Source of the DNA: an uncultured Pseudomonadales bacterium | Lineage (GTDB): Bacteria > Patescibacteriota > Microgenomatia > UBA1400 > UBA12028 | Assembly (NCBI GenBank): GCA_964509365.1 | Contig: CAZDWN010000001.1 | Location: 80,143 to 144,142, forward strand | Direction of reading: 5' to 3' | Length of the DNA stretch: 64,000 bases | Shown here: positions 17,923 to 42,448 of the stretch, piece after piece | Layout of the letters: each line of letters starts with the position of its first letter | How positions within the stretch are numbered: position 1 is the stretch's first letter | The notes under the pieces: model-generated | Seen by the model: only the letters and a program-made list of their open reading frames with translations | Told to the model about the DNA's origin: nothing | Database searches by the model: none | Made by a program: the position numbers and the translations under genes

Positions 17923-19008
17923 TTATTTGCCTAGAGTCACTACTATTGAAGTGGCTTTTGCGCTCTCACTAGCCGTAAAGGTCAGATCTTTGAGTGTGGA
18001 CTTTATCTCGGGGATCAGCGCTTTGTAGGCAGCTGGATACGAGATCGTGCCAGCAAGATCAGCATTTCCATTGCCGACTGTTCCCGTTGTAAAGCCAGCG
18101 GCTTTCAGGAGCGCCGCTTCTTTCGTCGCAAGGCCAGAAATCTTGGTCCCATTGAGGACATCGACTTTGACTTTCTTTTTGAGAAGCGCACTTTCTGATG
18201 CATTCAGGGTCGCACTTTCACTAGCGACTGGAGCTGTCGTACTCACTGGCGTCGGACGCGGTGTCGCGACGACTTCTGGAGTCGGAGTCGGGACACTGGT
18301 CGGACTAAAGAGATTGCGAGCGTAGAGGAAGAGCCCGCCGATCGCGAGGATGAGGACCGCGAGCACCATGAGGATGATACCAATCAGTTTCTTGTTATTC
18401 CCGCCCTCACTGGCGGCTTCATTGATCTCACCGACCACTGCTTGTGGTGCGACAGCTGAGGCATCCGCAAACATGTTTGGAGCTCCTTGCGGGATGCCAG
18501 GTTGCAACGGTTGAGTCTGCATCTGTTGCACTGGTTGGTTCATCCCATTTTTCAAATCATGTTCAAAAAATGATGGGAGTGTCGGCTCGGCGCTCATTCC
18601 CGCTGCTACAGGAGCTTGAGGTTGCATGACTGGAGCAACTTCCGGTTGAGGGGCGAGCACAAAAGGAGCGATATTCGAGACTTCCGGAGCTGCTTGCACT
18701 TGCGGCTGTATCGGCATCACTGGAGCCATTTGTGGCTGCGGCTCACTGACTGGCTGCTGCGACTGCCAGACTCTTTGGACTATCGGTTGCTGCGGTTCCG
18801 GAGCGTGCGGCGTTGGAGTCTCGGGTACTGGGGCTGTATACGAAGGAGGAGTTGGGGTAGGCATTTCTGGTTCCACATTTTCTATCTCGACGACCACCGG
18901 ACGACGAGCTGGTTGCAGTGACGGAGTCTCTGTTTGGTCCTCATCGAAGACATTGACGATAGGGACATTGTGTTTGGTGGTGTGTTTTGTGACAGGCTTG
19001 GGACTCAT
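17923..19008 (-). CDS. LytR_C-domain membrane protein with a Pro-rich linker
   Basis: C terminus KVDVLNGTKISGLATKEAALLKAAGF..YPAAY resembles the LytR C-terminal domain; the ORF track extends to 19179 but the Met at 19008 avoids overlap with the plus-strand gene. Confidence 0.5.
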   Translation of the reverse strand: MSPKPVTKHTTKHNVPIVNVFDEDQTETPSLQPARRPVVVEIENVEPEMPTPTPPSYTAPVPETPTPHAPEPQQPIVQRVWQSQQPVSEPQPQMAPVMPIQPQVQAAPEVSNIAPFVLAPQPEVAPVMQPQAPVAAGMSAEPTLPSFFEHDLKNGMNQPVQQMQTQPLQPGIPQGAPNMFADASAVAPQAVVGEINEAASEGGNNKKLIGIILMVLAVLILAIGGLFLYARNLFSPTSVPTPTPEVVATPRPTPVSTTAPVASESATLNASESALLKKKVKVDVLNGTKISGLATKEAALLKAAGFTTGTVGNGNADLAGTISYPAAYKALIPEIKSTLKDLTFTASESAKATSIVVTLGK

Positions 19009-19072
19009 AGTGTTTAGCGTAGCGCAAAGCGAAAGTGAGAGCAAGTCCAAAATGTTGTATGCTTGATCCACT

Positions 19073-19861
19073 ATGAAATATCTTCTCGTGGTGCTGGTTC
19101 TTTTTGGGTTGGTCGCTACTGCGATCGGGATCGTCGTCTCGCGTCGCCCACAGTCTGTTACCTCCCAAGCAGCTCCCACTCAAAATACCTTGGGAATGCT
19201 GATCAATGACTGCAATTATTTAATGCTGTCCAGATGCTTTTTCATCGAAGAAAAAGCACACATGAATATTTTCGTTCCGACACAGGCGCAAAAGACCGTG
19301 AGAGAGCATGCTTCTCCTACTTTTGCAAACTATAGTGAGTCGGTCGACCCACAAGTCTTCCTTCAACTCGGACAACCGATCGATCTCGGGTTACAACCAA
19401 GGTATACGACGAGTGAGATACTTGCTAGAGTCTCGCTGTCATCACAAATTAGCTATCGACTCCTCGCGGCTATTATGGTGATCCAAGGAAATGACGTGTG
19501 GAATGGAGACAAGCCAGCCGCAAACCCGCTCAATCGAAGTGAGTTATCGTTTGCCTCACAGCTGAGCGGCCTCGCTTCAGATTTACGAAAAGAGATTCAG
19601 GCTCAAAGTGAGATCCCCTCACCAACCGTGCGAAAAGATGACAAGGTCTATACGTTTGCGCCGGATACAACATCAGCTTCACGAGCCTTGACCATCTATT
19701 TTGCGAAGACACTTTCTGCCGAAGAATTTGAAGCGGTTGTCTTACCGACTTCCACTGCCAAAAACGCATTCCGAAATGTGTGGCTTGAGCTCTATGGTTC
19801 GCCTTCCATCCAAGAGATTCATGATCCCTCAGGGAGCGACCTCCCTCCAGGTATACGTTGA
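19073..19861 (+). CDS. membrane-anchored protein, partner paralog A
   Basis: N-terminal TM; the conserved block ILARVSLSSQISYRLLAAIM..NPLNRSELSFASQ aligns with ILSRISLSSDIDNRLLVALF..NPLSRKESSFSGQ of 25487-26296; its 3' end overlaps the giant gene by 33 nt. Confidence 0.55.
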   Translation: MKYLLVVLVLFGLVATAIGIVVSRRPQSVTSQAAPTQNTLGMLINDCNYLMLSRCFFIEEKAHMNIFVPTQAQKTVREHASPTFANYSESVDPQVFLQLGQPIDLGLQPRYTTSEILARVSLSSQISYRLLAAIMVIQGNDVWNGDKPAANPLNRSELSFASQLSGLASDLRKEIQAQSEIPSPTVRKDDKVYTFAPDTTSASRALTIYFAKTLSAEEFEAVVLPTSTAKNAFRNVWLELYGSPSIQEIHDPSGSDLPPGIR

Positions 19862-22800
19862 TGACTTCATTTTTTCCGGAGCGCTCTGGATGAGATCTGG
19901 TCGGTAGATAAAGAGACTTGCTGGTCCTTTATTATTCTCCGCTCCGTTGTTTCCATTCTTGAAGTCTCGTGGGAGATCGATCCCTCGCTTGGCTGCAAAG
20001 GTCCCTTCCCCTATAAACTTTAGATCCGTCCCGGCTGCACCAGTTGAAGCAACCGTGAGTGTCTGATCGGTAAAGTACATTCCTTGCACTTGACCGTCAG
20101 TCGTTTGCGAGTACGTTGAGGTCCCGACCGTATCGGAGATCGTGATCGTACCTTTGACAATGAAGGCGACGAATCCGCCTTTGGCAAGCTTGATGTCTTT
20201 ATTGATGGTGAGATTGCCTCCGACGAAGACGACGACCTTGTCTCCACTCGCGACATTCCAAACCGTATCGACAGTGAGGTTTCCTGATTGATAATAAAAT
20301 GATTTGCAGCTCGCGCCAGCGCATGGCTTCGTTGCGTTGTTTGGAGTACTAAAATCAGTTCCGCCGCTGACACCCACACTAAACTGTCGATAGAACGAGT
20401 CATAACTTTCTTTGAGCGCTGGCGAATTTGCGACACTGATAAGATGTGATGGAGCTGCAGAGACATTGCCAGTACCTCCAGCACTGTTGAGCTTGGAGAC
20501 AGGAGCAGCACTATCGACCAACAGCGATCCTGCAGTCTCTGGTCTACTGCCAGTGAGTGGCAGCGATAGATTTGGATCGCAGCCCGTAACTCCACAGAGT
20601 TGGACTGGGATCGGATCATTGACTGCGCGAGTCGTTGTGCTCAAAGCGGCGATATCCCCGCCAATTGTTTGGAACCAATGTTCCGCAACTGGGCTGGTGT
20701 AGAAGACTATATTTGGGTTCACTGGGACGGTTCGCGCTGGATACGTACAATTGAGTGGACAGGTGCAAAAATCAGTTGAGCCGACTGGTAGGTTGAGCTT
20801 GATGTCATACCCGCTATCATTTGGGATATTGGAGACCGAGAAACCACCACTGCCATTGACTGCACCAGAGAATGACAATGCTCCTTTGCTGACACTGACC
20901 GTACCCCCATTGGTATATACGGATGTCCCACTCGCCGAGCATCCTGGCCCGACGATCTTCCCCGTTCCACCTGGATCGGAGAGCACGGTTGACGCATAGG
21001 TCGACGTACAGACATCAAGTCGGAACAAATTTGATTGGGCGGCCGCTGAGTCTGGGGTACACAGACCGAGTGAGCTATGTGCACTGACGATGGCACGATA
21101 GCTTCGCCCAGGTGCTAGACTCGTCGTCACTGTACATGTCCCCGAGGCACATGGACGCGCTGCACGAGGGATGACGACCGCTCCCGTACTATCCACGACT
21201 TGGAAAAAATATTGATTCGCATTTGGGACAGCGGCCCATGTCCAGTCGACGTTTTGATTGCAAGTCGGACACGGCGCACACGTCGATGGAGCCGGATCTT
21301 GCGGCGTCGGACGCGTACACGCGACTGGAGGCGGCGCAGTATAGGTCACCGTTCGTGTGATGGAGACTGGAGTACCGGCACTATTCACACAGCGCAATGT
21401 ATATGAAGTTGTCGTACTGACACCAGCGATATTGAGAGTCCCCACCGTTGTCTTCGCTCCGGTCCAACCGCCACTTGCGGTACAGCTGGTCGCATTGGTT
21501 GCGGACCACGTCGCTTTGACAGTTGTCGGTGCACTGATACTCGCTGGAGTAACCGTAAACGTGAGGGTTGGCGCTGGGATGACGACTGCACTGAGATTCA
21601 CTGTGACGGTATCTGAGCCGCTACCCCCAGGTCCGGTACACGTGAGCACATACGTTTTTGCTGCGGTAATATTCGTCTGGACGAGGCTGCCGTTCGTCGC
21701 TCGTGCACCCGTCCATGATCCGCTCGAAGTACATGTAGTCGCATTGGTCGTTGTCCACGTGAGTGTGGTACTCCCTGCCGAAGGGACTGTGGCGGGACTG
21801 GCAGTCAATGTCACACTTGGAGCGGTACTGGCGGAAGTCGTGACGGTGACGGAGTCAGTTGATGTCCCACCGGTGCCCGTACATGAGAGGACAAATGTCT
21901 TTGCCGCATTGATTCCGGTGACCGTCAATGTCCCCGAAGTCAATCGCGCTCCTGTCCATCCATTACTGGAGGTACACGTCGTCGCATTGGTCGCCGTCCA
22001 TGTCAGCTTAGTACTACCACCGACCGGGACACTCGTCGGAGCTGCAGTGAGATTGACGACAGGAAGTGGTGGAAGTGATGCGACGTTGACGTTAACCGTC
22101 TTCGAGATTGTGCCACCAGGTCCAGTACACGTGAGTGTATACACATCGTTACTAGAGATTCCATTTTCCGCTTGGGTACCGTTCACGGCTTTCGCGCCTA
22201 TCCAATCACCAGATGCTGTACATGACGTCGTATTGGTGGAAGACCAAGTGAGTGTCGAGTTTCCATTGAGTGGGACCGTCGTCGGGGATGCAGTGAATGT
22301 CAGCGTCGGAGCTGCTGGAGGCGGTGCGGAAAATGTGACTGTGTCTGATGCCGTCGCCGAACCCGTCGCATTTGTACAGGTGATCGTGTACGTCGTGGTT
22401 GTGGCGACACCGGCGATGGTCGTGGTGCCAGAAGTGAGTTTTGTCCCTGTCCAGCCGCCGGTCGCTGTACAACTCGTCGCATTGGTCGAAGACCAACTCA
22501 CCGTGACGGTACTACTGCTACTGATCGTGGCAGGGGTCGCAGTGACCGAGACAGTCGGAGCGGGCGCCACCGGCTTAATCGTCGTAAATGTGAGAATCGT
22601 GTACGCACTGACGCACCCTGCTAAACTGGGATGGAACGTCAAGATAAATAATCGATAATTCGTATTTGGTTTGATAGTGAGCGGCCATCCGCGGGGATTT
22701 TGATACATGATCTCCCCACCAGTGACTTGTTGATTAAACTCATAAGTCCCAGTCGTCATATTGCGAAGTGTGAGTTGATACGCAGTCGCGACGTTGCCGC

Positions 22801-23560
22801 CCGGAGCCGAAAAGAATGGATAGTACGTACCAGGAGTGATGACCGCTCCGTCAGCCATCCCAGCCGGGATAGACCATCGCCACACCGGTGCGCCTGGTGG
22901 GCCACTATTTCCACAGACATTGTTGGTGCAGTTGGCATACTGAAAACTGCCGATGCCCTGCCAGTTTGGTGGGTTACATTGAATACAGACATAGGGAGGA
23001 CCATTTACACCACTCGCATTGCACGTGTCCCCTGCATATCCCATACCACAGTTTGGACTGTAGTTCCCGCAGATTGGAGCTCCGACCCCACCGCCAAAAC
23101 CGCAGCACATTTCGCCGCTCGCACAGCTCCCAGAAGCAGGTTGCCTACCGACTTGGCCACAATTACTCAGGCCTCCAAAGCATGCTCCAGTACACGAGCC
23201 GCCTGTCCCTCCACCACCACTCGTCGGAGTCGGTGTGGGTGCGACGACCGTACAAGTGCCAGGCTGAGATCCGGTGTTCAGATTGCAAGCACCAGTGGAT
23301 AAAATATTACAACTTGAGCTAGTCGTGAAGTATTCACACGTCGTCCCATTGAGTGTGCCTGATACTGAGCGGCAATTTGTGCCTGGAGTACACACAGCAA
23401 TCTGTTTTCCAGTGATTGGGTCAAAGTTACTTGAGCATGCACCATTTGATGAACACACATTGTTACATGTACAACTCGCTGCGAAGGCACTAGTCAAAGT
23501 TCCGAGATACAGGACGAATGAGAATACTCCGATGACGAGCCACTGAAAGTTTTTTTTCAT
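19829..23560 (-). CDS. giant secreted Cys-rich surface protein, paralog A (1243 aa)
   Basis: signal peptide, Cys-rich N-domain shared with paralog C, five tandem Ig-like repeats, and a conserved C-terminal module and tail ...GPASLFIYRPDLIQSAPEK..YTWREVAP. Confidence 0.75.
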   Translation of the reverse strand: MKKNFQWLVIGVFSFVLYLGTLTSAFAASCTCNNVCSSNGACSSNFDPITGKQIAVCTPGTNCRSVSGTLNGTTCEYFTTSSSCNILSTGACNLNTGSQPGTCTVVAPTPTPTSGGGGTGGSCTGACFGGLSNCGQVGRQPASGSCASGEMCCGFGGGVGAPICGNYSPNCGMGYAGDTCNASGVNGPPYVCIQCNPPNWQGIGSFQYANCTNNVCGNSGPPGAPVWRWSIPAGMADGAVITPGTYYPFFSAPGGNVATAYQLTLRNMTTGTYEFNQQVTGGEIMYQNPRGWPLTIKPNTNYRLFILTFHPSLAGCVSAYTILTFTTIKPVAPAPTVSVTATPATISSSSTVTVSWSSTNATSCTATGGWTGTKLTSGTTTIAGVATTTTYTITCTNATGSATASDTVTFSAPPPAAPTLTFTASPTTVPLNGNSTLTWSSTNTTSCTASGDWIGAKAVNGTQAENGISSNDVYTLTCTGPGGTISKTVNVNVASLPPLPVVNLTAAPTSVPVGGSTKLTWTATNATTCTSSNGWTGARLTSGTLTVTGINAAKTFVLSCTGTGGTSTDSVTVTTSASTAPSVTLTASPATVPSAGSTTLTWTTTNATTCTSSGSWTGARATNGSLVQTNITAAKTYVLTCTGPGGSGSDTVTVNLSAVVIPAPTLTFTVTPASISAPTTVKATWSATNATSCTASGGWTGAKTTVGTLNIAGVSTTTSYTLRCVNSAGTPVSITRTVTYTAPPPVACTRPTPQDPAPSTCAPCPTCNQNVDWTWAAVPNANQYFFQVVDSTGAVVIPRAARPCASGTCTVTTSLAPGRSYRAIVSAHSSLGLCTPDSAAAQSNLFRLDVCTSTYASTVLSDPGGTGKIVGPGCSASGTSVYTNGGTVSVSKGALSFSGAVNGSGGFSVSNIPNDSGYDIKLNLPVGSTDFCTCPLNCTYPARTVPVNPNIVFYTSPVAEHWFQTIGGDIAALSTTTRAVNDPIPVQLCGVTGCDPNLSLPLTGSRPETAGSLLVDSAAPVSKLNSAGGTGNVSAAPSHLISVANSPALKESYDSFYRQFSVGVSGGTDFSTPNNATKPCAGASCKSFYYQSGNLTVDTVWNVASGDKVVVFVGGNLTINKDIKLAKGGFVAFIVKGTITISDTVGTSTYSQTTDGQVQGMYFTDQTLTVASTGAAGTDLKFIGEGTFAAKRGIDLPRDFKNGNNGAENNKGPASLFIYRPDLIQSAPEKMKSSTYTWREVAP
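21326..22558 (-). repeat. five tandem ~83-aa (~250-nt) coding repeats inside paralog A
   Basis: each unit carries ...S(V/L)T(A/F)(T/S)P...TL(T/S)W(S/T)(S/T)TNAT(S/T)CTA(S/T)G.WTG(A/T)K...Y(T/V)L(T/S)C(T/V); residues ~335-745. Confidence 0.6.
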
Positions 23561-24150
23561 AGGATCATGCGCTCGATAGATTTGATTTCGATATCTTCGC
23601 TCGGATGCTCCGCAAGTTTTTGAGTGAGGACCGTAAAGTCTGTTTGGCTCATCTGTATATACAGGATAACATGATCATGCTGAGTGAGGAGAGAATCAAC
23701 ATCTGCAAATGGGACGACCTGCCAGATTTGTGAGGATTCAATTTTGCCATTGGTAGGATGGTAGACGAGGATGCCGGTTGGACTATCTGGAAGCACGTAG
23801 ACATTTGAATTGAATTGAGTGCCGTTGAATGTAGTAGAGACTCGAAGGAATTTCCCTTCGCCGAGATCACCAATTTTCTTGTCTGCTGCTGTCCCTGAGA
23901 TGATCAATTCTTTAGAACCTTCGTCGTAAGAGAGTTCAGCGTCGACATCTTTGCCAGTACGCGCCTCTTTGATCGTCGTGTATCTACTTGGCAGAGTGGG
24001 TGCAGACGAGACGATCTTTGATACCAACGGTACGGTATCAAATTTTGAGATGAGGACTGTTTTGTTCGCACCAATGAAGTACGCGACTCCTATAAAAAGT
24101 ATGAAACTGACGATGAGACCTATGAAAATGCGTGAGCGAGCCATGCTCAC
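23557..24150 (-). CDS. hypothetical N-terminally TM-anchored protein
   Basis: 197 aa with an N-terminal hydrophobic helix; overlaps the giant gene start by 4 nt. Confidence 0.45.
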   Translation of the reverse strand: MSMARSRIFIGLIVSFILFIGVAYFIGANKTVLISKFDTVPLVSKIVSSAPTLPSRYTTIKEARTGKDVDAELSYDEGSKELIISGTAADKKIGDLGEGKFLRVSTTFNGTQFNSNVYVLPDSPTGILVYHPTNGKIESSQIWQVVPFADVDSLLTQHDHVILYIQMSQTDFTVLTQKLAEHPSEDIEIKSIERMIL

Positions 24151-24183
24151 TTCATCATAGTGGCAAGAAAATAAAATTACAAG

Positions 24184-25287
24184 TTAGTTGCCAATGGATC
24201 TCGTCGCAAAATATGAGGAGTTACCAAACTCAAGTTCCTCACCATCTTTCGGATACTTTCCATTCACCAAGTCTTTAAACAGTTTTGCCTGATTTGCATA
24301 TGCATCATGGTATGCAATGACGACATCACAAAATTCTGTGCATTTGCTCGCATCTAAGACTGTGTCCTTACCGGATGGGTTGCGCTGAGGCAACGCGATC
24401 ACTATCTGACGCGAATCTATTTTGGCCTGAAACTCATCCCAATCCATGAATCGAGCACCGTTGGCACCATTTTGCGTTACCGCGTACGATTTTACCTTAT
24501 TACCGTTATCCAATGGGTACACCAAGTTATTAAATACAATATTTACCTTCACTCCATCTTTCGGTTCATACACAAAGTGAATTCGCTCGACAGATGCTGA
24601 AAGATCTTTTTGTAGTGCCTCACTATAGAACGTGGTTTCGACCACCTCAGTTTTTACGATTCTTCCCCCGATCGCCCAACCTGGATGGTACGGTTCCTTC
24701 CCTGGGAGGATTCTCACTTTCAGATCATTACTTTGAAACTTTGTGCCTTCGATATTGAGCTCGTACGGTTTTCCAGGGTCAATAGCGACTGCATCTAATG
24801 CTGCCAATGTTGGGTCTTTAACTTCTTTGACTGTCGAAGGTTTTGCAGGTTTTACGGTGAGATCCTCTTTTGTGTATAAAATGTATCGATCAGTACTGTC
24901 GCTGACACGAAAGAGTACCTTGCCGTTGTCAGAGACGCCTTCCCATGTGACCACGGAAATCGTCGCAGTATCAGCTATCTTAAATCTGTTTTTCATGTCG
25001 CTGATGACGTCTGCGAGATCGCCAAAATTCTCTGCGGGGGTAAATATGGGGAGCACTTCATTGCCCTTGAGGACGATCGCCATGGCGATTTCTTGCTGTT
25101 GTACTGGCGTTGGCTCTGGTTCCTGCAGAACTAATTCAATTGATTTGTCATTGATAGGCTTTGTCTCACCACGGTCTTGGTTTGCCAAGACGCTGCCTTG
25201 GAAAAGAAACGCTGCAACAGCGATGACGGCAGGTCTTTCAACCTTCTGAATCATTTCTTCTATTTGTTTTCGTAGTTCAGCAGACAT
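24184..25287 (-). CDS. hypothetical secreted protein
   Basis: 367 aa with an N-terminal hydrophobic segment; no recognised motif. Confidence 0.45.
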   Translation of the reverse strand: MSAELRKQIEEMIQKVERPAVIAVAAFLFQGSVLANQDRGETKPINDKSIELVLQEPEPTPVQQQEIAMAIVLKGNEVLPIFTPAENFGDLADVISDMKNRFKIADTATISVVTWEGVSDNGKVLFRVSDSTDRYILYTKEDLTVKPAKPSTVKEVKDPTLAALDAVAIDPGKPYELNIEGTKFQSNDLKVRILPGKEPYHPGWAIGGRIVKTEVVETTFYSEALQKDLSASVERIHFVYEPKDGVKVNIVFNNLVYPLDNGNKVKSYAVTQNGANGARFMDWDEFQAKIDSRQIVIALPQRNPSGKDTVLDASKCTEFCDVVIAYHDAYANQAKLFKDLVNGKYPKDGEELEFGNSSYFATRSIGN

Positions 25288-25326
25288 ATTTACCTTATAG
25301 CTTTTACTATGAGTCCGACTCGTGGT

Positions 25327-25354
25327 AAAAAAAGAACCGCCTGAGCGGTTTTAT
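25327..25354. terminator. conserved hairpin aaccgc-ctga-gcggtt flanked by A7 and a T-run
   Basis: about 42 nt upstream of the 25287 start; near-copy of the hairpin at 31261-31285. Confidence 0.45.
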
Positions 25355-25486
25355 GCACAATCCAGACTTCTTCGGGTTTCCCTCTCGAGGAAAATGCGAT
25401 ACAGAAGTGAGAAAAGTCTCATTAAATAGTAAGTATATACCATAGGTTGGCACTCGTCAATTGCTATAGGCCATGGCTGAGCTTAC

Positions 25487-26296
25487 TTGCGTAGAGTCGT
25501 CTTTCTCTTGTATGCTGGAGCTAGTATGAAGTCGATCGTGGCAGTTGCCGTCCTGTTTGGTGTCCTATCCCTAGGCATCGGTACCTATTTTGTCTCCACC
25601 GGGCGTGCCCCTCAAATGATCTCTCGGGCTGCACCGGAGACGAGTGTGCTCTCAAATCTGATTGACGACTGCGACTTTATCGCCCTCCCAAACTGCAGCG
25701 ATCGCACTTCCGGGAAATCGCTTGCAGTCTTTATCACGGAAGAGACTGAACAATTGATTCGAGACAATGCGCCGAAATCAGTCGTGGATTATCGAGAGAC
25801 CGTCTCGCCCGACTTGTTCAATGACCTAGGCAACCCTATCGTTCTGCCGACCAAACAAGTCTATTCAGTCGGAGATATCTTATCGAGAATCTCGTTGTCG
25901 TCAGACATTGACAATCGTTTACTCGTCGCTCTGTTTATGTCGCAAGGGTCAAAGGCCTGGGATGGTCAATCGAGTCTTTCTAATCCACTCAGTCGCAAGG
26001 AATCCTCATTTTCTGGCCAATTTGCGCAAGCAGCGATAGAGCTTCGCGATGGCTTTCACTCGCAGCTCGAATTTCCCACCAATTCAGTGACCAACGGCAC
26101 CACAAATTATCCATTTGATTCTGGATATGTGAGTACATCCTCGCGCGCATTGTATGCATATTTGGCCCGCACGAGTTCGCAAGCGGACTTTAAACGAATT
26201 GTTTCTCTGTCACAAGCGGAGCCAACATCATTTCGCGCGGTGTGGAAATTGATCCATCCAGTCGCTCCAAAAAAAGTAATTGAGAATTTGTATTAA
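25487..26296 (+). CDS. membrane-anchored protein, partner paralog B
   Basis: paralog of 19073-19861; its 3' end overlaps giant paralog B by 4 nt. Confidence 0.55.
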   Translation: MRRVVFLLYAGASMKSIVAVAVLFGVLSLGIGTYFVSTGRAPQMISRAAPETSVLSNLIDDCDFIALPNCSDRTSGKSLAVFITEETEQLIRDNAPKSVVDYRETVSPDLFNDLGNPIVLPTKQVYSVGDILSRISLSSDIDNRLLVALFMSQGSKAWDGQSSLSNPLSRKESSFSGQFAQAAIELRDGFHSQLEFPTNSVTNGTTNYPFDSGYVSTSSRALYAYLARTSSQADFKRIVSLSQAEPTSFRAVWKLIHPVAPKKVIENLY

Positions 26297-28800
26297 GGGT
26301 TCACTTCTTTCCAAATGTACGACGGGGTTTTCAGTTTGTCTGGAGCGTTTTGGATCAGGTCAGGTCTATAGATAAAGAGACTTGCTGGCCCTTTGTTGTT
26401 TTCGACGCCGTTGTTCCCATAGCGAAAATCTCGTGGCAAGCTGATACCAGATCGAGCTGCAAACGTCCCTTCTCCGATGAACTTCTTTTCGCTGCCTGCG
26501 ATCGTGGAAGTCGCCACTGTGAGTGTGCCATCAGCAAAGTACATGCCCTGCACTTGTCCTCCACTTGTCTGCGCCGAGAATGGCAAGGTTGCGGTACCGA
26601 CATCTTTACTGATGGAGATATTTCCCTTGACGATAAAGCCGATGAATCCACCTTTCGTCAACGTGATTGAATTATTGATGATCAAATTTCCTTTGACGAA
26701 CACGACGATTTTGTCTGCCGCGCCGACATTCCATGGAGTGTTGATCGTGAGGTCAGTATCCTGATAATAAAAATCTTTGCAGGTTGCGCCGCCACATGGT
26801 TTCGTTGCATTGCTCCCAGCCCCGAAATCATTCCCAAGACTTAGGCCCACACTAAACAATCGATAGAAATAGTCGTAACTATCTTTGATCAGTGGATTTG
26901 TGCCCACTTTGATGAGGCGTGAAGGACTGCCGACATTACTATCTTGCGATCCTGACGGATTACTCTTTAAGTCAGCATTTGCACCAGAGTTGATGAGCAG
27001 CGCGCCAAGACTATTTGCATTCCCAGAGGTCAGTCGCGTAGAGAGATTCGGATCGCAGCCGGTGATCGCGCAGAATTCTGTCGGGATTGGATCGTCGACT
27101 GCATTTCCGGACGGTGCCAACGCGGCGATGTCACCACCGACCGTTTGATACCAACTATTTGCGACAGGACTCAAGTAAAATTTGAGTGCAGGGCTCAGCG
27201 GCACCGTTTTAGAAGAGTATGTGCAACCGGCGGGACACGTGCAGTAGTAATTACTCAGTGGTGAAAGCGTGATGTCATAGTTGGCGTTCATGTTTGGCAC
27301 GTTGTTGATCGTCGCCGTACTTCCACTGACACTCCCATAGTACGTGAGTCCATTGGAGATTCCTTTGGCTTGGATCGCACCGCCACCGGAAAATGCCCTG
27401 CCTGTGCTTGGTGATGTACACTGCTCAGTCGAACCACTTCCAGTTCGGCTCGGCGCTGTCCCATTCGTCAATTGCGGATCTTCTTCGAGCGTCATCGTCA
27501 CATTGCTGGAACATGTACTCAATGTATAGTCCTGCGATCGACCGACCGTTGACGCCGGTGTACATGCCCCTGACGTGCTACTGGCCGTCACCAGTGAATG
27601 ATAGGTACCTGGCAAGAGTTGCAGATCGATATGGCATGTACCGCCTGCCGGACAACCCATTTGCGTTCCCGTTTGTGTAATTGGGGCGATGACGACATTA
27701 TCATTTTGATCTCGTATTTCGACGGTGTATCGATTTGCAAATGGGATCGCGAGCCAATTCCAACGAATGGTGGTCAGAGTTGTCGGTGTGGCTGCGCAGA
27801 CTCCCGACGCCGGATCGAGCGGTACTGGAGTGATACACTGGACCGGCGGTAACGGTCTTGGATTCGCCTGGATTTGCATGTACTGGTCGGGGCCTTTGAC
27901 GAGATACCCTGGACACGTAGTAAACCCATTCACTTTGAATTGAACAATTCCCGGAGACGTCGCTTTAAATCCGCACACCCAGTAGTGAGGAGAGGTCGCG
28001 TTGTAATAGACGTAGCCGCCTGAATAACAGGATACGGGCGTCGTATTCCCGGTCAGCGCCTGAAATGAGAAAGCGCTCGTACACGTGTCGTTGATAGGAT
28101 AGGCGACGGTGTAGAACCCATCGCCGACGAAGACGCTACTTTTTGCTGCAGCCGGTTGCGCAGCTGCATAGCTGTCCACCACATACAGTGAGAGTGATGC
28201 AGGTGGAGGATTGTTACTCCCCTGTCCGCATCCAGATGGATCCCACACACATGCACCACTCGGATTTGTGCGACACTGTGTCTGATTGGTGCCTGGGCAG
28301 CCACTACAACCGCCACAGGCTCCATACCCACTACTGCCATTTCCAGGTCCGCTGCCGCCACTACTTCCATTCACCCAGCAGCCGTAGGTGAGGTTTTGAG
28401 CACTCTCCATACAAGTTGAGTTCGAGCTTCCACCCCCGGAACACGTGGTGATCGACCCATTAAACTGACAACTCGGAGCTCCCGAGCAACCCACTGTCTG
28501 CGATCCCGTTGTCGCACACCAAGGTGGACCTGAGAGTGAGAAGTTATCACAGACTTGAATACACGATCCTTGTGCCGGACCACAATCACTTGGAACTTTT
28601 CCCAATGTACACGCGGTCAATGAATACGAACACTTTGAGCTGTATTGTGTGCAGACAGATGGTCCGCTGGTACATGCATATTGGTTGATGATACGAGATG
28701 GAGCGCAAGTCTGGGCATGGACTTTGCTCGTCTGTGACTGGATCGCAAAAAAGAAGACCGTGAGGGTCAGAATTCGTGCAATGTGCAAGACTTGCTTCAT
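26293..28800 (-). CDS. giant secreted Cys-rich surface protein, paralog B (835 aa)
   Basis: signal peptide, Cys/Gly/Ser-rich N-region, and a C-terminal ~400-aa module and tail GPASLFIYRPDLIQNAPDK..YIWKEVNP shared with A and C. Confidence 0.75.
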   Translation of the reverse strand: MKQVLHIARILTLTVFFFAIQSQTSKVHAQTCAPSRIINQYACTSGPSVCTQYSSKCSYSLTACTLGKVPSDCGPAQGSCIQVCDNFSLSGPPWCATTGSQTVGCSGAPSCQFNGSITTCSGGGSSNSTCMESAQNLTYGCWVNGSSGGSGPGNGSSGYGACGGCSGCPGTNQTQCRTNPSGACVWDPSGCGQGSNNPPPASLSLYVVDSYAAAQPAAAKSSVFVGDGFYTVAYPINDTCTSAFSFQALTGNTTPVSCYSGGYVYYNATSPHYWVCGFKATSPGIVQFKVNGFTTCPGYLVKGPDQYMQIQANPRPLPPVQCITPVPLDPASGVCAATPTTLTTIRWNWLAIPFANRYTVEIRDQNDNVVIAPITQTGTQMGCPAGGTCHIDLQLLPGTYHSLVTASSTSGACTPASTVGRSQDYTLSTCSSNVTMTLEEDPQLTNGTAPSRTGSGSTEQCTSPSTGRAFSGGGAIQAKGISNGLTYYGSVSGSTATINNVPNMNANYDITLSPLSNYYCTCPAGCTYSSKTVPLSPALKFYLSPVANSWYQTVGGDIAALAPSGNAVDDPIPTEFCAITGCDPNLSTRLTSGNANSLGALLINSGANADLKSNPSGSQDSNVGSPSRLIKVGTNPLIKDSYDYFYRLFSVGLSLGNDFGAGSNATKPCGGATCKDFYYQDTDLTINTPWNVGAADKIVVFVKGNLIINNSITLTKGGFIGFIVKGNISISKDVGTATLPFSAQTSGGQVQGMYFADGTLTVATSTIAGSEKKFIGEGTFAARSGISLPRDFRYGNNGVENNKGPASLFIYRPDLIQNAPDKLKTPSYIWKEVNP

Positions 28801-29363
28801 AGCGTTGCGACCATTTGTGGCTGAATACTATAGGTGTTTGGAGTGATTTCTTTGGCTTGGAGGAGCGCCTCCATTGGCGGCACGAGGCTTTTGACAGCGT
28901 CGGCATCCGTCTTCGTGACGACGACTCGGACCTCGATCGACGTTCCTGTTTTGAGTGACGATAAGATCTCCGATACTTTTTGCATCTTCCAAGGCAATTG
29001 ACCTTTCGTATCGAGATCAGCAAAATTGATTTGTGACACACCTTGAGCGAGCATGACACGAACAGGAATTTTCTTCTCATCGCCTTCGATCGCTATATCC
29101 ATCGCATACAGGCCAGAGTAGTCTTTTGGAGCCGTGAGGATCGTCCCTCTCACTGTATAAATCGTTTGATCATTACTTGGTTCGTTTTTGCGGACAAAAT
29201 ATTTTGGATTGCGAGTCTCTTGTATTGTCGGCGTTTGCTCGGTACTGACAGCCACAAATTCCTTTTTCGCCGCACTCCCACTTCGGCGTGTCGCCCAAAA
29301 AACGAGTCCAGCAAGGAGTGTGAAAAAAATGACGAGGACAATGAGGACAGAATACGATTTCAT
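28797..29363 (-). CDS. hypothetical N-terminally TM-anchored protein
   Basis: 188 aa; overlaps the giant gene start by 4 nt, the same layout as 23557-24150. Confidence 0.45.
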   Translation of the reverse strand: MKSYSVLIVLVIFFTLLAGLVFWATRRSGSAAKKEFVAVSTEQTPTIQETRNPKYFVRKNEPSNDQTIYTVRGTILTAPKDYSGLYAMDIAIEGDEKKIPVRVMLAQGVSQINFADLDTKGQLPWKMQKVSEILSSLKTGTSIEVRVVVTKTDADAVKSLVPPMEALLQAKEITPNTYSIQPQMVATL

Positions 29364-29414
29364 GCTACTTTCTAGAGTAGCTGTATCTGATCAGTATTTC
29401 AAGCAGTTATGGAA

Positions 29415-30812
29415 TTATTGTGGGAACACAATGAATGAGGCCGGATAATAGATGCCAGGCTGCATTTGACCTTGTAAGGTGCCGAATCGAACATCAACAT
29501 CGTAATTATTTGCAGGAAATGTACCTGCCGCCGTATTCTTAGCAAGATCTTGAGCAATCGCGATATACGCTGCTCTTACATCTGGGCTGTACCCTATATT
29601 GTTAGCCACCAATTTAATCTGCAATTTTGCACCATTCGGCAGATCTCGCAGTTGTTTCAATATTTCACTCATGTCCAAACTAAGAGGAGCTTTGTCCCCA
29701 ATTGCTAGATCCATTCGTCCTTGCGAAGCAATCGGTATGAGCGCCGCAAAAACTGTATCATTGCCGCCCACCCATTGAACCAGACAGAATGAATATTTTT
29801 CTGTACCGTACATGACCTCGTGTTGCGTACAGTCTGCTAAGGCAACTGTGAGCATCGTTGGTTCTCCGGTCTCAGCATCGATGGAGAATCCGGTTGGACC
29901 AATTTTTTTTACTTCTTCGAGCGACAACATACTTGTAGGTACAAATTTATTGTCGATCAACTCCTGTAGCAATGGAGTGGCAGCTTTCCAGACTGAGGAA
30001 AGGACAATTCCTTCAAATCCTGGAATCTTTAATTCTTTCGTGCTTGATCCGGTCTCCGCAACTGCGGCATTTGTTTCGATAATAAGTTGTAGTCTCTCTC
30101 CACTAAGACCCTTCTGCGCTACCCACTTCCCACTCACTAGCTTGTACCATGTAAGATCGCCATCCGTAAGGGTTTCACCGGTAAAATATTCTTTTGTTCC
30201 AGTGACAAATTTGGTCGCAGGAAAGTTGACCCCTGGACCAGTTCGCAAGTTCGCGCCTTCGACAATATTGATTTGTGCTTTGAAAATAGAAAATTTTGCT
30301 TCCGCAGCGGTGTGAAAAGTTTTGGACTTTTGAGATGCATCTATAGCTTTGAAATTGAGTACGACGTACTCTGGAGTGCCGCCCACGCTGACTTCAAGCA
30401 ATACCACGTCACCCATGTTGACGTCAGGAGAATCCCAGCTTAGTGTATTGACGAGTGAGTCTGGCGTCAGATCCATGACTTTTGCAAGTTGCGAAAGTAT
30501 TTCAGGGGATGCAGGGACGCGAGTGACTGGGATTTCAGCTCCATTGACGGTGAGCGCTAGAGCGATATCGGTCCCGAGTGGATCTTCACCAGTGGATTGT
30601 TCAATATCACGCGGGATGTGCTGCGCCCAAAGATCTGAAGTGACGATCGTACTGTCGCCTTCATTTTTCCCAGAATTACTTTCTACAGTTTTGGAGTTTG
30701 CGGAGATTTCTCCGGCGTTTGCAGCGACGATGAGGCCCATTGCACCCGCGGCGAGTACAGCTTTATTCTTTAGAGTTCTCAAGAAATTTTTCTTTGGTTC
30801 CATCTCTCCCAT
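29415..30812 (-). CDS. secreted protein with an SH3b-like domain
   Basis: signal-like N terminus; GANLRTGPGVNFPATKFVTG...DLTWYKLVSGKWVAQKG resembles bacterial SH3. Confidence 0.5.
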   Translation of the reverse strand: MGEMEPKKNFLRTLKNKAVLAAGAMGLIVAANAGEISANSKTVESNSGKNEGDSTIVTSDLWAQHIPRDIEQSTGEDPLGTDIALALTVNGAEIPVTRVPASPEILSQLAKVMDLTPDSLVNTLSWDSPDVNMGDVVLLEVSVGGTPEYVVLNFKAIDASQKSKTFHTAAEAKFSIFKAQINIVEGANLRTGPGVNFPATKFVTGTKEYFTGETLTDGDLTWYKLVSGKWVAQKGLSGERLQLIIETNAAVAETGSSTKELKIPGFEGIVLSSVWKAATPLLQELIDNKFVPTSMLSLEEVKKIGPTGFSIDAETGEPTMLTVALADCTQHEVMYGTEKYSFCLVQWVGGNDTVFAALIPIASQGRMDLAIGDKAPLSLDMSEILKQLRDLPNGAKLQIKLVANNIGYSPDVRAAYIAIAQDLAKNTAAGTFPANNYDVDVRFGTLQGQMQPGIYYPASFIVFPQ

Positions 30813-30849
30813 ACTACCTTATCTTTCAGGTTGTCTCATGAGTCAAATC

Positions 30850-31218
30850 TCATTCTCGCTTAAAGCAACCAATCTCAACCAACTCACCAAACTGATTTGG
30901 GAACTCCCCAATCACGGTGACTTTTGCTCCGTTTGGACCTTGCTCAGACGGCGGTTCCAGTTGAAAAGTGTGAGGGTTGATAAACGTAGAATCATGAAGA
31001 TTGAGAACTGCGTCGCACTGAGCGATAAGCGAATCAAGATCAGCAGGTTGAGCTGGAATTGGTTCACCGGTTGGCGACTCAGAACGCACTGCTAAAATTG
31101 CTCCAACGGAGATCAAGACTATAGCTGCGGCAGTTTTTAGTCGATCAATGATCTTTGGATCAATTGGCGATTCAGGTGTTCCAAATCCTACGGTTTCTTT
31201 AGTCTTTTGTGTTGCCAT
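30850..31218 (-). CDS. hypothetical protein with one hydrophobic segment
   Basis: 122-aa ORF preceded by the conserved hairpin. Confidence 0.4.
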   Translation of the reverse strand: MATQKTKETVGFGTPESPIDPKIIDRLKTAAAIVLISVGAILAVRSESPTGEPIPAQPADLDSLIAQCDAVLNLHDSTFINPHTFQLEPPSEQGPNGAKVTVIGEFPNQFGELVEIGCFKRE

Positions 31219-31260
31219 ATGTATAACTCATAGCGATTTACTATAAGTTTTGTAGTAAGT

Positions 31261-31285
31261 AAAAAAATGACCGCCTAGGCGGTCT
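31261..31285 (-). terminator. intrinsic terminator gaccgcc-tag-ggcggtc with a T7 run on the minus strand
   Basis: perfect 7-bp stem 150 nt past the paralog C stop; sequence relative of the hairpin at 25327-25354. Confidence 0.55.
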
Positions 31286-31430
31286 GAACAATTTGCAATG
31301 CGCTCTCGAGGAGATTGACATCTTCCCTCAGTGGAACGAACTCTCTTTGCTTCATTAAATACAAAGTATATACCTCTTTGTCAAGGAACGCAATATACTA
31401 TGGGACTTACAGATAAGTTTGAGGTGTACA

Positions 31431-33869
31431 TCAAGGAGAGACTTCTCGCCAATTATAGGAAGATGTGCGCATCCGAGGAGGAGCATTCTTGACGAAGTCA
31501 GGTCGGTAGATAAACAACGCTCCAGGGAATGTGTTGTTGTCCAAGCCTACGTCCGCCCTGGCATAGTCTCGATCGATCTTGATGCCACCACAGGCAGCAT
31601 ATGTCCCTTCCGCTACGAGTTTCTTCTCTTCAGTCACTCCCCCTCCCAAGACTTTGATGCTGTTATTGGCGATAAAGACTCCTTGGACTTGCCCAGGGCC
31701 AGTACTACTATGGTTACTTGTCCCCACATTTGCTCCGATCTGTATATCTCCAGAGACGATGAATGCGAGGAAGGCGTCTGTCGGGACGGTGATGTTTGCA
31801 TTGACGTGAAGATCGCCATTGACAAAGACGACGATCGTATCCCCACTCTGGACATTCCAATCACTAGCGATCGTCAATGGGAGCGCGCCACTGTAATAGT
31901 ATGCAGACTTTCCATTGCTTGGCGAGCTGCCTTTGGCAGGCATCACTGCATTCGCTGGATTTTGGAAATCAGAGCTTGGATTGATACCCATACTATAGAG
32001 ACGATAAAAGTAAAGGTAGTTTTCGTTGCACTGGAGAGCGTTCGTGAGTTTCACCGAGTGGTCATCCGGTGATGCAGCGATAGTACCTGACAGGAAATTG
32101 ACGACTGAGCGCGCCATCGTGATCAAGGCTCCAATCGAGTTTTTACTGATTCCCAGTGGCAGTGAGAGAAATGGATGACAGTACGGCTCGACGCAGCCAG
32201 CTGGGATAGTGTCACCCAGTGCGACTCCCCCATCCACTTGAGCGGCGACATCGCCACCCATTGTTTGATACCAAGCTTTCCCGATCGGCGTGACATAAAA
32301 TTTGAGGTCTTCGGTCGTTGGAGCACTTTTTTGGTGATACTCACATCCTGCTGGACAGCTACAGGTATAGTTTGGATCCGACGGAGTGAATTTAACGGTA
32401 TACGTGCCATCTGCTTGCGGGAGACTCGAAATTGTATATGTGCCATCTCCTTTTATCGAACCACGATATGGGGCCGCGACGCCATTCAGTGCTTCCACCG
32501 ACCCAAAGGTAAATGCGTCACCAGTATCGGGGGAGCTACAGTACTTTGACAAAAATCCTATTGCAGTTGGCTTTGTCCCGCCTTTGAGAGACGGATCCGT
32601 CTCTACATGCGAGGTAATCGATGCGAGAGGTGTGGCAGTCGGTTTTGGCGTTGGTGTCGGCGTAGGGACTGCGGTAGGCGTAGCTGTGGGTTTTGCAGTC
32701 GGAGTGGCCGTCGGCCTCACAGTTGGTGACGCACTCGGATTTGCAGTGGGAGTCGGTGTGGGTACAGTGCCATTGCACGCAGCTTGATTCAACTCGATCA
32801 CATAGCCAATAGATTTTCCGCCACAGAAGAGATCAAGTTGCCACTTGCTACAGATTGGTCCCATGCCAAGCACGATACTCGCGCCTGGCGCCAGTGTTTG
32901 CGTCCCATTAGAGTCCGCCAGTTTATCCCATCGATCCAAGAGCCAATCAAACGTCGCAGGTGTAGTTGAGATATTTTTGACGATGAATTTATCTGTAGTG
33001 TTCCACATGATCGGATCTGGATACGGATTCGTGGTCAGTTGACTGAGGCTACAATTTGCTACGGGTGCAGGAGTTGGACTCGGTGTCGGCGTCGCTACTT
33101 TAGTCGTGAAGTTGAGAGTCAGTACAGAGCTCGTACAGGCGGAGCCAGATGACTGAGCTGTTGCAATTCGCATGGTGTAATCAGTATTGGCTTTGTAGGT
33201 ATATGGCCAGCCACGAGGATTTTGGTACATGATCTCGCCACCAGTCACTTGCGCATTAAACTCATATGAGCCTGGGACGCCCACACTGTGATCGTCGATA
33301 TTGAGATAATAGATCGTAGCGACAGTGCCGCCTGGAGCGCTAAAGAATGGATAGTATTGTCCTGGAGCTATCACTGCTCCATTGGCGATGCCGGCAGGGA
33401 TCGACCAGCGCCAGACTGGAGTCCCAGGTGCACCCAGGGTACCACAGACGTTATTCGTGCAGTTTGGATATTGGAAACTCCCCATTCCTTGCCAAGTGTT
33501 GGTGCTTGCCATGCATTGAATACACACATATGGAGGTCCTGCATTTCCACTCGCATTGCATACTGCTCCCGGAGTCGCTGGACCACAGTTTGGGTTGTAG
33601 TTACCGCACAGTGGTCCTGTATACCCACTACTACACGCATTACCGACAGGATGATCTGCTGGACACGTACGGCAAGAAGGATCAGTGCCGCAATCATCAC
33701 CTTGATTTTTCCAGTAGATATCGTTACTACAGGCGTTACATTTGGTTGGATCATTCCCAGGACTTTCGCAGCAGGTACGGCCGGCAAATGCGTGCGGAGC
33801 TTTGACAAACGAGATCATTCCAAACAGGATAAAAAAAAGTGCGAGTGAACGGATCCGAGCGACAGACAT
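31431..33869 (-). CDS. giant secreted Cys-rich surface protein, paralog C (812 aa)
   Basis: signal peptide; N-domain CGNYNPNCG...PPYVCIQC...VWRWSIPAG..YYPFFSAPGG nearly identical to A; Pro/Thr-rich linker; C-terminal module and tail PGALFIYRPDFVKNAPPR..YNWREVSP. Confidence 0.75.
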   Translation of the reverse strand: MSVARIRSLALFFILFGMISFVKAPHAFAGRTCCESPGNDPTKCNACSNDIYWKNQGDDCGTDPSCRTCPADHPVGNACSSGYTGPLCGNYNPNCGPATPGAVCNASGNAGPPYVCIQCMASTNTWQGMGSFQYPNCTNNVCGTLGAPGTPVWRWSIPAGIANGAVIAPGQYYPFFSAPGGTVATIYYLNIDDHSVGVPGSYEFNAQVTGGEIMYQNPRGWPYTYKANTDYTMRIATAQSSGSACTSSVLTLNFTTKVATPTPSPTPAPVANCSLSQLTTNPYPDPIMWNTTDKFIVKNISTTPATFDWLLDRWDKLADSNGTQTLAPGASIVLGMGPICSKWQLDLFCGGKSIGYVIELNQAACNGTVPTPTPTANPSASPTVRPTATPTAKPTATPTAVPTPTPTPKPTATPLASITSHVETDPSLKGGTKPTAIGFLSKYCSSPDTGDAFTFGSVEALNGVAAPYRGSIKGDGTYTISSLPQADGTYTVKFTPSDPNYTCSCPAGCEYHQKSAPTTEDLKFYVTPIGKAWYQTMGGDVAAQVDGGVALGDTIPAGCVEPYCHPFLSLPLGISKNSIGALITMARSVVNFLSGTIAASPDDHSVKLTNALQCNENYLYFYRLYSMGINPSSDFQNPANAVMPAKGSSPSNGKSAYYYSGALPLTIASDWNVQSGDTIVVFVNGDLHVNANITVPTDAFLAFIVSGDIQIGANVGTSNHSSTGPGQVQGVFIANNSIKVLGGGVTEEKKLVAEGTYAACGGIKIDRDYARADVGLDNNTFPGALFIYRPDFVKNAPPRMRTSSYNWREVSP

Positions 33870-41788: not shown

Positions 41789-42448
41789 CTATTTAGAGAG
41801 CCTGGTTAGGCCGTATTCAGAGGTGATCCATCCGAGAGTAGATTCGTTGATTCGTATCTGGTACCAGCCATTGGAGATGACATCGGCAAATGAGATGTAC
41901 CACCCGCTTGGCAAGACGCCGATTTGTGTGGACTGTAAGCTTGCGCCGTTGCGGATTCGCACATTGATTCCAGGGATGATTGCCTGGACGCTGGCGGCCG
42001 CAGTTTGGAGTTTTGACCCCATGATTGGAGCCGACGGGACTCGAGAAGACCTTTGAGCAGACACGGTGTTTGAGGTGCGAGCGACTGCATTCCCATTGAC
42101 TACATACGTCAGCGTCTCGCTAGTAGGGAGCATTCCGTTTGGATCATCTTTCGAGACGACACGCACAGTGACCGTATAGGTTCCAGGTCCAAAGGTAAAT
42201 CCATTGGTATCCCAGATTCCTTCCGAGATGACCGAGGAACGCACGACGTACGACACTGACGCTACTTCTGAAGGACATGAGGTATCGGCAGTAAATCGGA
42301 CACTGGTCCCTGCCGCTACTGGTGAGGCTGGACTCCCCCGAAAATTGGAGATCGTGCAGTCACCCATTGCAAACGCCTGCTTTGGACTTCGAAGAGTACC
42401 GAAGAGGACAGAGATGATGACGATGGCACAAACGATTGGCTTTTTCAT
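41789..42448 (-). CDS. secreted SH3b-domain protein
   Basis: signal peptide; NGWYQIRINESTLGWITSEYG SH3b-type C terminus. Confidence 0.5.
   Translation of the reverse strand: MKKPIVCAIVIISVLFGTLRSPKQAFAMGDCTISNFRGSPASPVAAGTSVRFTADTSCPSEVASVSYVVRSSVISEGIWDTNGFTFGPGTYTVTVRVVSKDDPNGMLPTSETLTYVVNGNAVARTSNTVSAQRSSRVPSAPIMGSKLQTAAASVQAIIPGINVRIRNGASLQSTQIGVLPSGWYISFADVISNGWYQIRINESTLGWITSEYGLTRLSK

Follow-up and report, generated by a model that had tools for sequence, protein, structure and literature searches.

Proteins of the PilY1/PilC type occur as several paralogues per genome and carry a conserved C-terminal seven-bladed beta-propeller. In Thermus thermophilus, ComZ has an ice-binding-protein-like solenoid that is inserted in a pilin fold and sits at the pilus tip, and the protein has been proposed to cap the competence pilus together with the adjacent pilin PilA2 (PMC6561018). 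Cyanobacterial PilX minor pilins have the same kind of solenoid and are proposed to form a PilY1-like or PilY1-replacing tip plug (bioRxiv 10.64898/2026.02.12.705559). A study of Saccharibacteria pili describes minor pilins that themselves carry other accessory domains, namely a jelly-roll and a propeller. The DNA analysed here, a 64-kb stretch of contig CAZDWN010000001.1 (the window), encodes three paralogous exported proteins, A, B and C, which share a C-terminal module with a predicted solenoid of the ComZ kind and belong to a family whose genes lie in type IV pilus loci in many relatives. The explanation that we prefer, at a probability of roughly one half, is that A, B and C are adhesins, exported by Sec, that dock with their solenoid on the tip of a type IV pilus. 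The three genes and their parts are as follows (amino acids, aa; open reading frame, ORF; hidden Markov model, HMM; ice-binding protein, IBP).

19829..23560, (-): paralog A, an ORF of 1243 aa, with signal peptide (1-27), Cys-rich region (28-157), A/C-shared domain (158-327), Ig-like repeats (331-743), fn3-like domain (744-869) and C-terminal module (870-1243)
19832..20953, (-): C-terminal module of A, a predicted CnaB-like sandwich plus IBP/ComZ-type solenoid, placed by HMM match (A870-1243) and alignment
21332..22570, (-): Ig-like repeats of A, n=5, with two Cys each (W[ST]xTNAT.C ... C)
22580..23089, (-): A/C-shared N-terminal domain in A (residues 158-327), an 8-Cys knot and then a beta-rich part
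26293..28800, (-): paralog B, an ORF of 835 aa, with signal peptide (1-29), Cys-rich head (30-319), fn3 domain (320-430), CnaB/transthyretin-like sandwich (431-545) and solenoid (546-835)
26296..27165, (-): predicted triangular beta-solenoid of B, ending in the invariant C-terminal tail F.YRPD...P..MK....W.E
27166..27843, (-): fn3 domain and CnaB/transthyretin-like sandwich of B
27844..28713, (-): Cys-rich head of B, of which residues 30-200 are common to B-type relatives, including one pilus-locus member
31431..33869, (-): paralog C, an ORF of 812 aa, with signal peptide (1-29), Cys-rich leader (30-81), A/C-shared domain (82-256), unique region (257-365), Pro/Thr linker (~366-416) and C-terminal module (417-812)
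31434..32621, (-): C-terminal module of C (HMM match C422-812)

An earlier reading of the letters and their translations (the sequence-only reading) had described three giant Cys-rich paralogues at this place. All three ORFs are present on the minus strand, although at 812-1243 aa they are large rather than giant, and their relationship is borne out by BLASTP, in which A744-1243 and B318-835 align at 49% identity (522 aa, E 2e-153), the C-terminal parts of A and C at 38% (378 aa, E 9e-73) and those of B and C at 39% (412 aa, E 3e-78). The motifs quoted for the shared module are reproduced in the three-way alignment. The common module spans ~375-520 aa, and its HMM matches exactly A, B and C among the window's ORFs and no others; low-complexity composition does not account for the paralogy, since the conserved columns are a mixture of hydrophobic, aromatic and charged residues. 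The N-terminal Cys-rich domain that A and C were said to share is likewise present (A158-327 and C82-256, 63% identity over 175 aa, E 5e-64), and an fn3-like domain directly upstream of the module is common to A and B but absent from C. The middles differ as described in A, with its five repeats, and in C, with its Pro/Thr linker, but the Cys/Gly/Ser-rich region that had been placed in the centre of B is N-terminal (30-200). In A, the five ~83-aa two-Cys repeats (331-743) are 37-61% identical in pairs; no tandem repeat underlies them at the DNA level, and Pfam gives no match to them.

Each protein begins with one hydrophobic segment followed by an AxA-type site (SAFA/AS, KVHA/QT and HAFA/GR, the slash marking the site), which agrees with the signal peptides read there before. 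No further membrane segment is found in A, B or C, the N-termini hold no class III (prepilin) signal, and beside the Sec-type signal peptide there is no anchor of any known kind. Sortase anchoring was considered and rejected, as none of the three ends in LPXTG, a hydrophobic segment and a charged tail; the sole LPLTG is internal, at residue 1000 of A, and is not conserved in B or C. Cys totals are 50 (A), 38 (B) and 28 (C), all even, and extracellular disulfide formation is plausible because Candidate Phyla Radiation (CPR) genomes encode, and are enriched in, disulfide machinery of the MdbA/VKOR type (bioRxiv 10.1101/335083).

Two AlphaFold models bear on the fold of the module, one from a 14-sequence alignment (predicted local distance difference test, pLDDT, 74) and one of full-length B from a 113-sequence alignment. 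In the latter, residues 320-835 mostly reach pLDDT 85-98, and residues 30-315, the Cys-rich head, stay below 50 and give no usable model. The C-terminal part of the module is predicted to be a triangular beta-solenoid of the ice-binding-protein/ComZ type, preceded in the model of B by fn3 and CnaB-like sandwiches; the sequence-only reading had suspected a beta-solenoid from the Val/Gly-rich repeats, and had also been right that the module answers to no named family. Neither Pfam nor NCBIfam has a match above cut-off for the module, a PDB sequence search with the family profile returned 0 matches at E<=10, and Foldseek against PDB returned only generic fn3 tandems. The kinship with known pilus-tip proteins that the earlier reading had allowed for is thus found at the level of the fold and not of family membership. 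The only sequence family with recurrent matches is DUF7305 (PF23981), a domain without assigned function, which we take to occur in PilX-like pilus proteins. Its matches fall on the solenoid coils and are weak (6 of 14 and 11 of 57 family members, best E 8e-7), and in the window they stay below the 27-bit gathering cut-off: 19.6 bits for C residues 653-744, 13.7 bits for full-length B or 18.3 bits for its module alone, and no match for A.

A fold of this type might suggest true ice-binding (antifreeze) proteins. The suggestion is hardly credible, however, as Pfam Ice_binding matches only 1 of 14 members (E 0.008), the module is the C-terminal end of large Cys-rich, adhesin-like proteins, and the linkage to pilus loci set out below is unconnected with ice binding. 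The polar residues W550, Q552, R790, N801, R812, D814, W830 and E832 (B numbering) are invariant; they are kept in A, B and C, are identical in pilus-linked and unlinked members, and fall by sequence position at the start and end of the solenoid. By analogy with ComZ topology, these ends would be the ones that abut the pilin domain. The invariant Arg, Asp and Glu could instead be those of a catalytic beta-helix, polysaccharide-degrading or other, that attacks the host cell wall and is targeted by the N-terminal domains, and lyases and tailspikes are indeed often beta-helices. No enzyme family is matched in Pfam or NCBIfam, however, and a catalytic role seems very unlikely.

The family to which A, B and C belong is large. 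A word-index search, which is badly incomplete, gave 11 matches with the module and 0 with the A/C-shared domain (which also has no relative among the 150 best family members), and the picture of a rare family that it offered was rejected by an exhaustive profile search, in which 3,896 cluster representatives (of clusters at 50% identity) were found at E<=1e-3 and 1,025 at E<=1e-30. All members that have a name belong to the Patescibacteria (Woesebacteria, Cerribacteria and 'Patescibacteria group'), in keeping with the CPR-like genome that had been proposed; the window itself is Patescibacteria/Microgenomates-like. In 151 of the 155 retrieved members the module is the extreme C-terminus, and the parts that precede it measure 356 aa and contain 6.7% Cys (medians). 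In the variable parts of 57 full-length members there are only domains of the binding type, from the F5/8-C (discoidin, 5), fn3 (4), PA14 (3), VWA (2), TSP1 (1) and Big_6 (1) families, and no enzyme domains. It is this set of PA14, discoidin, VWA, fn3 and TSP1 domains that makes an adhesin role plausible. Our searches gave the family no sequence-family assignment, and our literature searches found no paper that describes it.

Fixed ends with swappable middles had been taken as the mark of a diversifying family, and across orthologues this holds: C-type orthologues keep the ~55-aa Cys-rich leader and the module (lengths 626-879 aa), B-type orthologues keep the head of B and the module (835-1117 aa), and in both groups the ends are kept while the middles change. 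The window's array is a different matter. The module of C is 50-60% identical to those of relatives P0002, P0015, P0016 and P0017, and the head of B is 47% identical to residues 27-139 of P0041, whose gene lies in the type IV pilus locus L014. A, B and C are old paralogues with orthologues in other genomes, and not a recently diversifying array, because the A/C-shared domain has 70% DNA identity and synonymous codon identity is not raised in it (the same codon is used at 51% of identical residues, vs 43-47% in the C-terminal modules). A recent gene conversion between A and C was rejected on the same figures. Tandem family genes are found in 8 of the 80 metagenome loci that were sampled for the linkage counts below. 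In loci of other genomes (L073, L074, L076, L078, L085, L086 and L089) there is a fixed tandem pair, with a protein of ~600-680 aa and then one of ~440 aa, followed by a prepilin gene, and paralogue arrays are thus a recurrent trait of the family.

Pilus loci make up 6 of the 15 family-gene contexts that were inspected. In these (L010, L012, L013, L014, the P0007 locus and L098), the family gene lies within PilM ... pilins-PilD-PilC-PilT/B clusters. In L010 (Patescibacteria BroJett032), it is located between PilM/PilX-like genes and a block of prepilins with the prepilin peptidase, and a prepilin gene (QAGFTLVELLMV) runs into its 3' end with an overlap; the layout is repeated in L012, L013, L014 and the P0007 locus. 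A pilin gene therefore overlaps or directly follows the family gene in 5 of the 6, L098 being the exception. This last locus, which is from the window's own clade, has convergent pilins and no same-strand downstream pilin. In L010, L012, L013 and L014 the downstream pilins are orthologues of one another, at 37-51% identity, and both of those that were scanned (L010 and L013) match N_methyl above cut-off. Beside the partner pilin in L013, there is a further gene (L013:6888-8561, minus strand) in which a pilin-like N-terminus is fused to Laminin_G_3 and DUF5648. Across the metagenome sample, a same-strand prepilin motif occurs no more than 780 nt downstream of the family gene in 26 of 73 loci, vs 0 of 35 control windows located 1.5-2.3 kb upstream (Fisher p = 7e-6), and pilin linkage is present in at least four family clades. 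The link between family and pilus is thus well supported, and we infer that it extends to the three genes of the window. Because the family is tied to type IV pili in many relatives, a pilus-associated role is indicated rather than a generic surface-layer one; of the host-attachment or surface-structure role first proposed for A, B and C, attachment remains plausible from the binding domains of relatives, and the generic surface structure is disfavoured.

If the pilus in question is of the competence type, the solenoid could act at its tip as a ComZ-like receptor that binds extracellular DNA and feeds uptake via ComEC in a nucleotide-auxotrophic organism. ComZ and its adjacent pilin PilA2 bind DNA (PMC6561018), the module is structurally similar to the ComZ solenoid, and ComEA is absent from many CPR genomes, in which some other DNA binder may serve (bioRxiv 10.1101/335083). 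However, ComZ binds DNA at a site between its pilin domain and its solenoid, and the proteins here lack a pilin domain; they have no sequence similarity to ComZ, and heads with glycan- or protein-binding domains (PA14, discoidin, VWA) suit adhesion and not DNA capture. DNA reception is thus unlikely to be the function of these proteins.

Docking on a pilus tip must also be weighed against the immediate surroundings of A, B and C, which the sequence-only reading had passed over and which consist of the following small or exported proteins.

19073..19861, (+): p262, membrane-anchored protein of ~250 aa, convergent with A and overlapping the 3' end of A by 33 nt
23557..24150, (-): p197, small protein with an N-terminal membrane anchor, joined to A by an ATGA stop/start overlap
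24184..25287, (-): p367, exported protein that opens cassette 1 and is the positional counterpart of p465
25487-26296 (ORF), (+): p269, paralogue of p262 that converges on B and overlaps it by 4 nt; the probable start Met is at 25526
28797..29363, (-): p188, small N-terminally membrane-anchored protein, in translational coupling with B (ATGA overlap)
29415..30812, (-): p465, exported protein with a putative bacterial-SH3-like stretch (..GANLRTGPGVNFPATKFVTGTKEYFTGETLTDGDLTWYKLVSGKWVAQ..) judged by eye
30850..31218, (-): p122, small membrane-anchored protein between C and p465

Small membrane-anchored partner genes accompany each of the three copies, and every accessory protein has an N-terminal hydrophobic anchor or signal. 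Two cassettes can be recognised, the first made up of p367, p197, A and the convergent p262, and the second of p465, p188, B and the convergent p269; in each, the order is a putative SH3-like protein, a small membrane protein, the family protein and a convergent membrane protein. Of the corresponding accessory proteins, only p262 and p269 are recognisable paralogues (35% identity, E 3e-48), with no detectable similarity between p197 and p188, which occupy the same position, or between p367 and p465. No Pfam match is found for p465 itself, and its positional counterparts carry SH3_3 in L014 (L014:6011-7414, 30.4 bits vs a cut-off of 27) and also in the P0016 locus; a counterpart of p367 (523 aa) has the same position in L096. 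In L001 (31% identity, E 1e-33) and L006, an orthologue of p188 is the immediate upstream neighbour of a family gene. Homologues of p262 take the same convergent position in L003, L005 and L006, and an unnamed convergent gene takes it in L096 and the P0016 locus, where the match is by position only. A word-index search with p269 gave 1 match, and there is no detectable similarity between p269 and L002:9024-9998; jackhmmer found no further relatives of p197, p367, p465 or p122. A 146-aa gene stands at the place of p122 in the P0016 locus. In p122 itself, 'LIAQCD' resembles the two-Cys motif 'LI(N/D)DC' near the membrane anchor of p262 and p269, and the proteins may be distantly related.

The array is embedded among housekeeping genes (rpsB, tsf, frr, rseP, secDF and endonuclease III) and a gene for a LytR_C protein, in a synteny that is kept in L001 (a Woesebacteria metagenome-assembled genome), L003, L005, L006, L008, L096, L097 and the P0016 locus. 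C is directly downstream of rseP, as in L001, L005, L006, L008 and the P0016 locus, and p122 follows C. The P0016 locus has two family genes vs three in the window, and the window has therefore duplicated the cassette.

The second cassette also has a counterpart in a pilus locus. L014 has, in this order, an SH3 protein, a 179-aa membrane protein, the family protein P0041 and a pilin, and the series p465-p188-B matches the first three of these. The 179-aa protein (L014:7465-8004) and the p188 orthologue of L001 are related (E 1e-5). Taken with the 47% identity of the head of B to P0041, these correspondences indicate that the window cassette is a pilus-locus cassette that was relocated; it lacks the pilin and has the clade-specific convergent gene p262/p269 in the pilin's place.

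Several observations weigh against a pilus-docking role for the window's own copies. There is no prepilin-type ORF anywhere in the 64-kb window, and the 20 flanking ORFs scanned with Pfam include no pilus machinery genes. Most loci of the clade (L001, L003, L005, L006, L008, L096, L097 and P0016) are unlinked to pilus genes, and the clade's unlinked loci carry the convergent membrane protein (p262/p269) where a pilin would be; overall, about two thirds of family loci are without an adjacent pilin. A, B and C have no pilin domain of their own, and neither ComZ nor any solved structure is matched at the sequence level. Because pilins are absent from the window and from most loci of its clade, it may be that the proteins are envelope-anchored adhesins that work without a pilus, with the solenoid docked on p188/p197, on p262/p269, or on the wall by way of the SH3-like p465/p367, and with the heads displayed on the cell surface. 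Such a model would explain a conserved four-gene cassette of exported or membrane-anchored proteins, the coupled translation of p197 with A and of p188 with B, and the presence of SH3_3, a wall-binding type of domain, in the counterparts of p465. It would also explain why a small N-terminally anchored ORF that ends at the start of the family gene (29 of 39 metagenome loci) is a more constant neighbour than the pilin. However, the small membrane protein and the SH3 protein accompany family genes in pilus loci too, and therefore do not tell the two models apart; the invariant residues of the module are the same in pilus-linked and unlinked members; and L098, with a member from the window's own clade, is a pilus locus. 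Anchoring in the envelope is the main rival to pilus docking, possible but less probable.

Some other features of the window and its relatives touch on these surroundings. The ORF of the LytR_C membrane protein (17923-19179, minus strand) is probably too long: its homologues align from about residue 52, and the real start is therefore near 19011, without overlap with p262. A few kilobases from the array there are exported proteins with SH3_3 (and GW) domains of the wall-binding type (40235-41563 and 41789-42448, both on the minus strand), and a prokaryotic LSDAT/SLOG protein is encoded at 38830-39987. A TrwB/TraG-like type IV secretion coupling ATPase of 715 aa (43396-45543, plus strand) occurs amid housekeeping genes; as a similar gene flanks L097, it appears to be conserved in the lineage and not to be part of a mobile element. 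No tRNA genes and no Rfam families at gathering score were found in the 64 kb. In L003, L005, L006, L007 and L008, which are GTDB contigs, the order rseP, family protein, LytR_C is the same as in the Woesebacteria genome. This is a gene order of the CPR type, in view of which the label 'uncultured Pseudomonadales bacterium' looks wrong.

On the explanation that we prefer, A, B and C would be modular adhesins, rich in disulfides and exported by Sec, from a family that spans the Patescibacteria. Their variable N-terminal part would be a ligand-binding head, made of Cys knots and Ig-like repeats here and of PA14, discoidin or VWA domains in relatives, and the conserved C-terminal part (fn3 in A and B, CnaB-like sandwich, solenoid and invariant tail) would be a rigid stalk and docking module. 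The solenoid would dock in trans on a minor pilin in the tip complex of a type IV pilus, in the role that PilY1/PilC have in Proteobacteria and the built-in ComZ/PilX solenoid has in Thermus and cyanobacteria. The heads would then bind ligands on the host surface, and three copies would give one cell three alternative heads. A more specific version, which we put forward tentatively and consider less likely than not, is that of a split ComZ/PilX: the pilus-tip solenoid of Patescibacteria would have become detached from its pilin and moved to the C-terminus of Sec-exported proteins, which would snap onto a dedicated minor pilin via the invariant solenoid ends (W550/Q552 and the R812-P-D...W830-x-E832 tail), and the interchangeable heads of A, B and C would set host recognition by the episymbiont.

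Outside Saccharibacteria, the molecules that recognise hosts are, to our knowledge, largely unknown. All cultivated Patescibacteria are attached to other microbes in their way of life, and the attachment device with the best support is the type IV pilus (PMC11623550). The family described here combines a conserved solenoid of the pilus-tip type with highly variable binding heads and is in many lineages part of pilus operons, and A, B and C are good candidates for host-attachment heads that can be interchanged. If the docking model is true, these proteins are concrete candidates for determinants of host range in Microgenomates, and, beside the PilY1 propeller and the solenoid built into ComZ/PilX, theirs would be a third structurally distinct way in which an adhesin caps a type IV pilus.

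Among known systems, the module belongs by its predicted fold with the ice-binding-protein/ComZ solenoids. It shares the modelled IBP-1 fold with the ice-binding proteins (DUF3494/PF11999; PDB 3wp9, 6bg8 and 7bwx), but A, B and C have no PF11999 match, and their context and multi-domain architecture are unrelated to cold adaptation. Unlike sortase-anchored Gram-positive adhesins (MSCRAMMs such as SdrD and Cna), they have no C-terminal sorting signal of LPXTG plus membrane anchor. Of the pilus proteins, ComZ (PDB 6qvi) and PilX are the nearest in structure, as the triangular ice-binding-protein-like beta-solenoid is present in the modelled module; moreover, many relatives' genes adjoin that of a dedicated minor pilin in a pilus locus, as comZ adjoins pilA2. 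However, the ComZ and PilX solenoids are inserted in their own pilin fold, whereas the family has no pilin domain and the pilin is a separate gene. Family members start instead with an ordinary cleavable Sec-type signal peptide, continue with Cys-rich domains and have the solenoid as the C-terminal end of a long modular protein; there is no sequence similarity, and the window's three copies have no pilin neighbour. With no pilin fold and a Sec signal, they are by architecture not pilins of the ComZ/PilX kind. The likeness to PilY1/PilC is one of architecture only and includes the Sec signal peptide, the variable N-terminal adhesive part, the conserved C-terminal domain, the location of the genes among those of minor pilins (in the family's case, in relatives), the several paralogues per genome and, for PilY1, a VWA domain, which 2 of the 57 family members also have. 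As the family has a beta-solenoid in place of the propeller, and Pfam PilC/PilY1 (Neisseria_PilC) gives no match, this is a matter of analogy and not of homology. In the way that they would work, nonetheless, A, B and C seem most like PilY1/PilC: a variable N-terminal adhesin mounted on a conserved C-terminal docking domain, and present as several paralogues.

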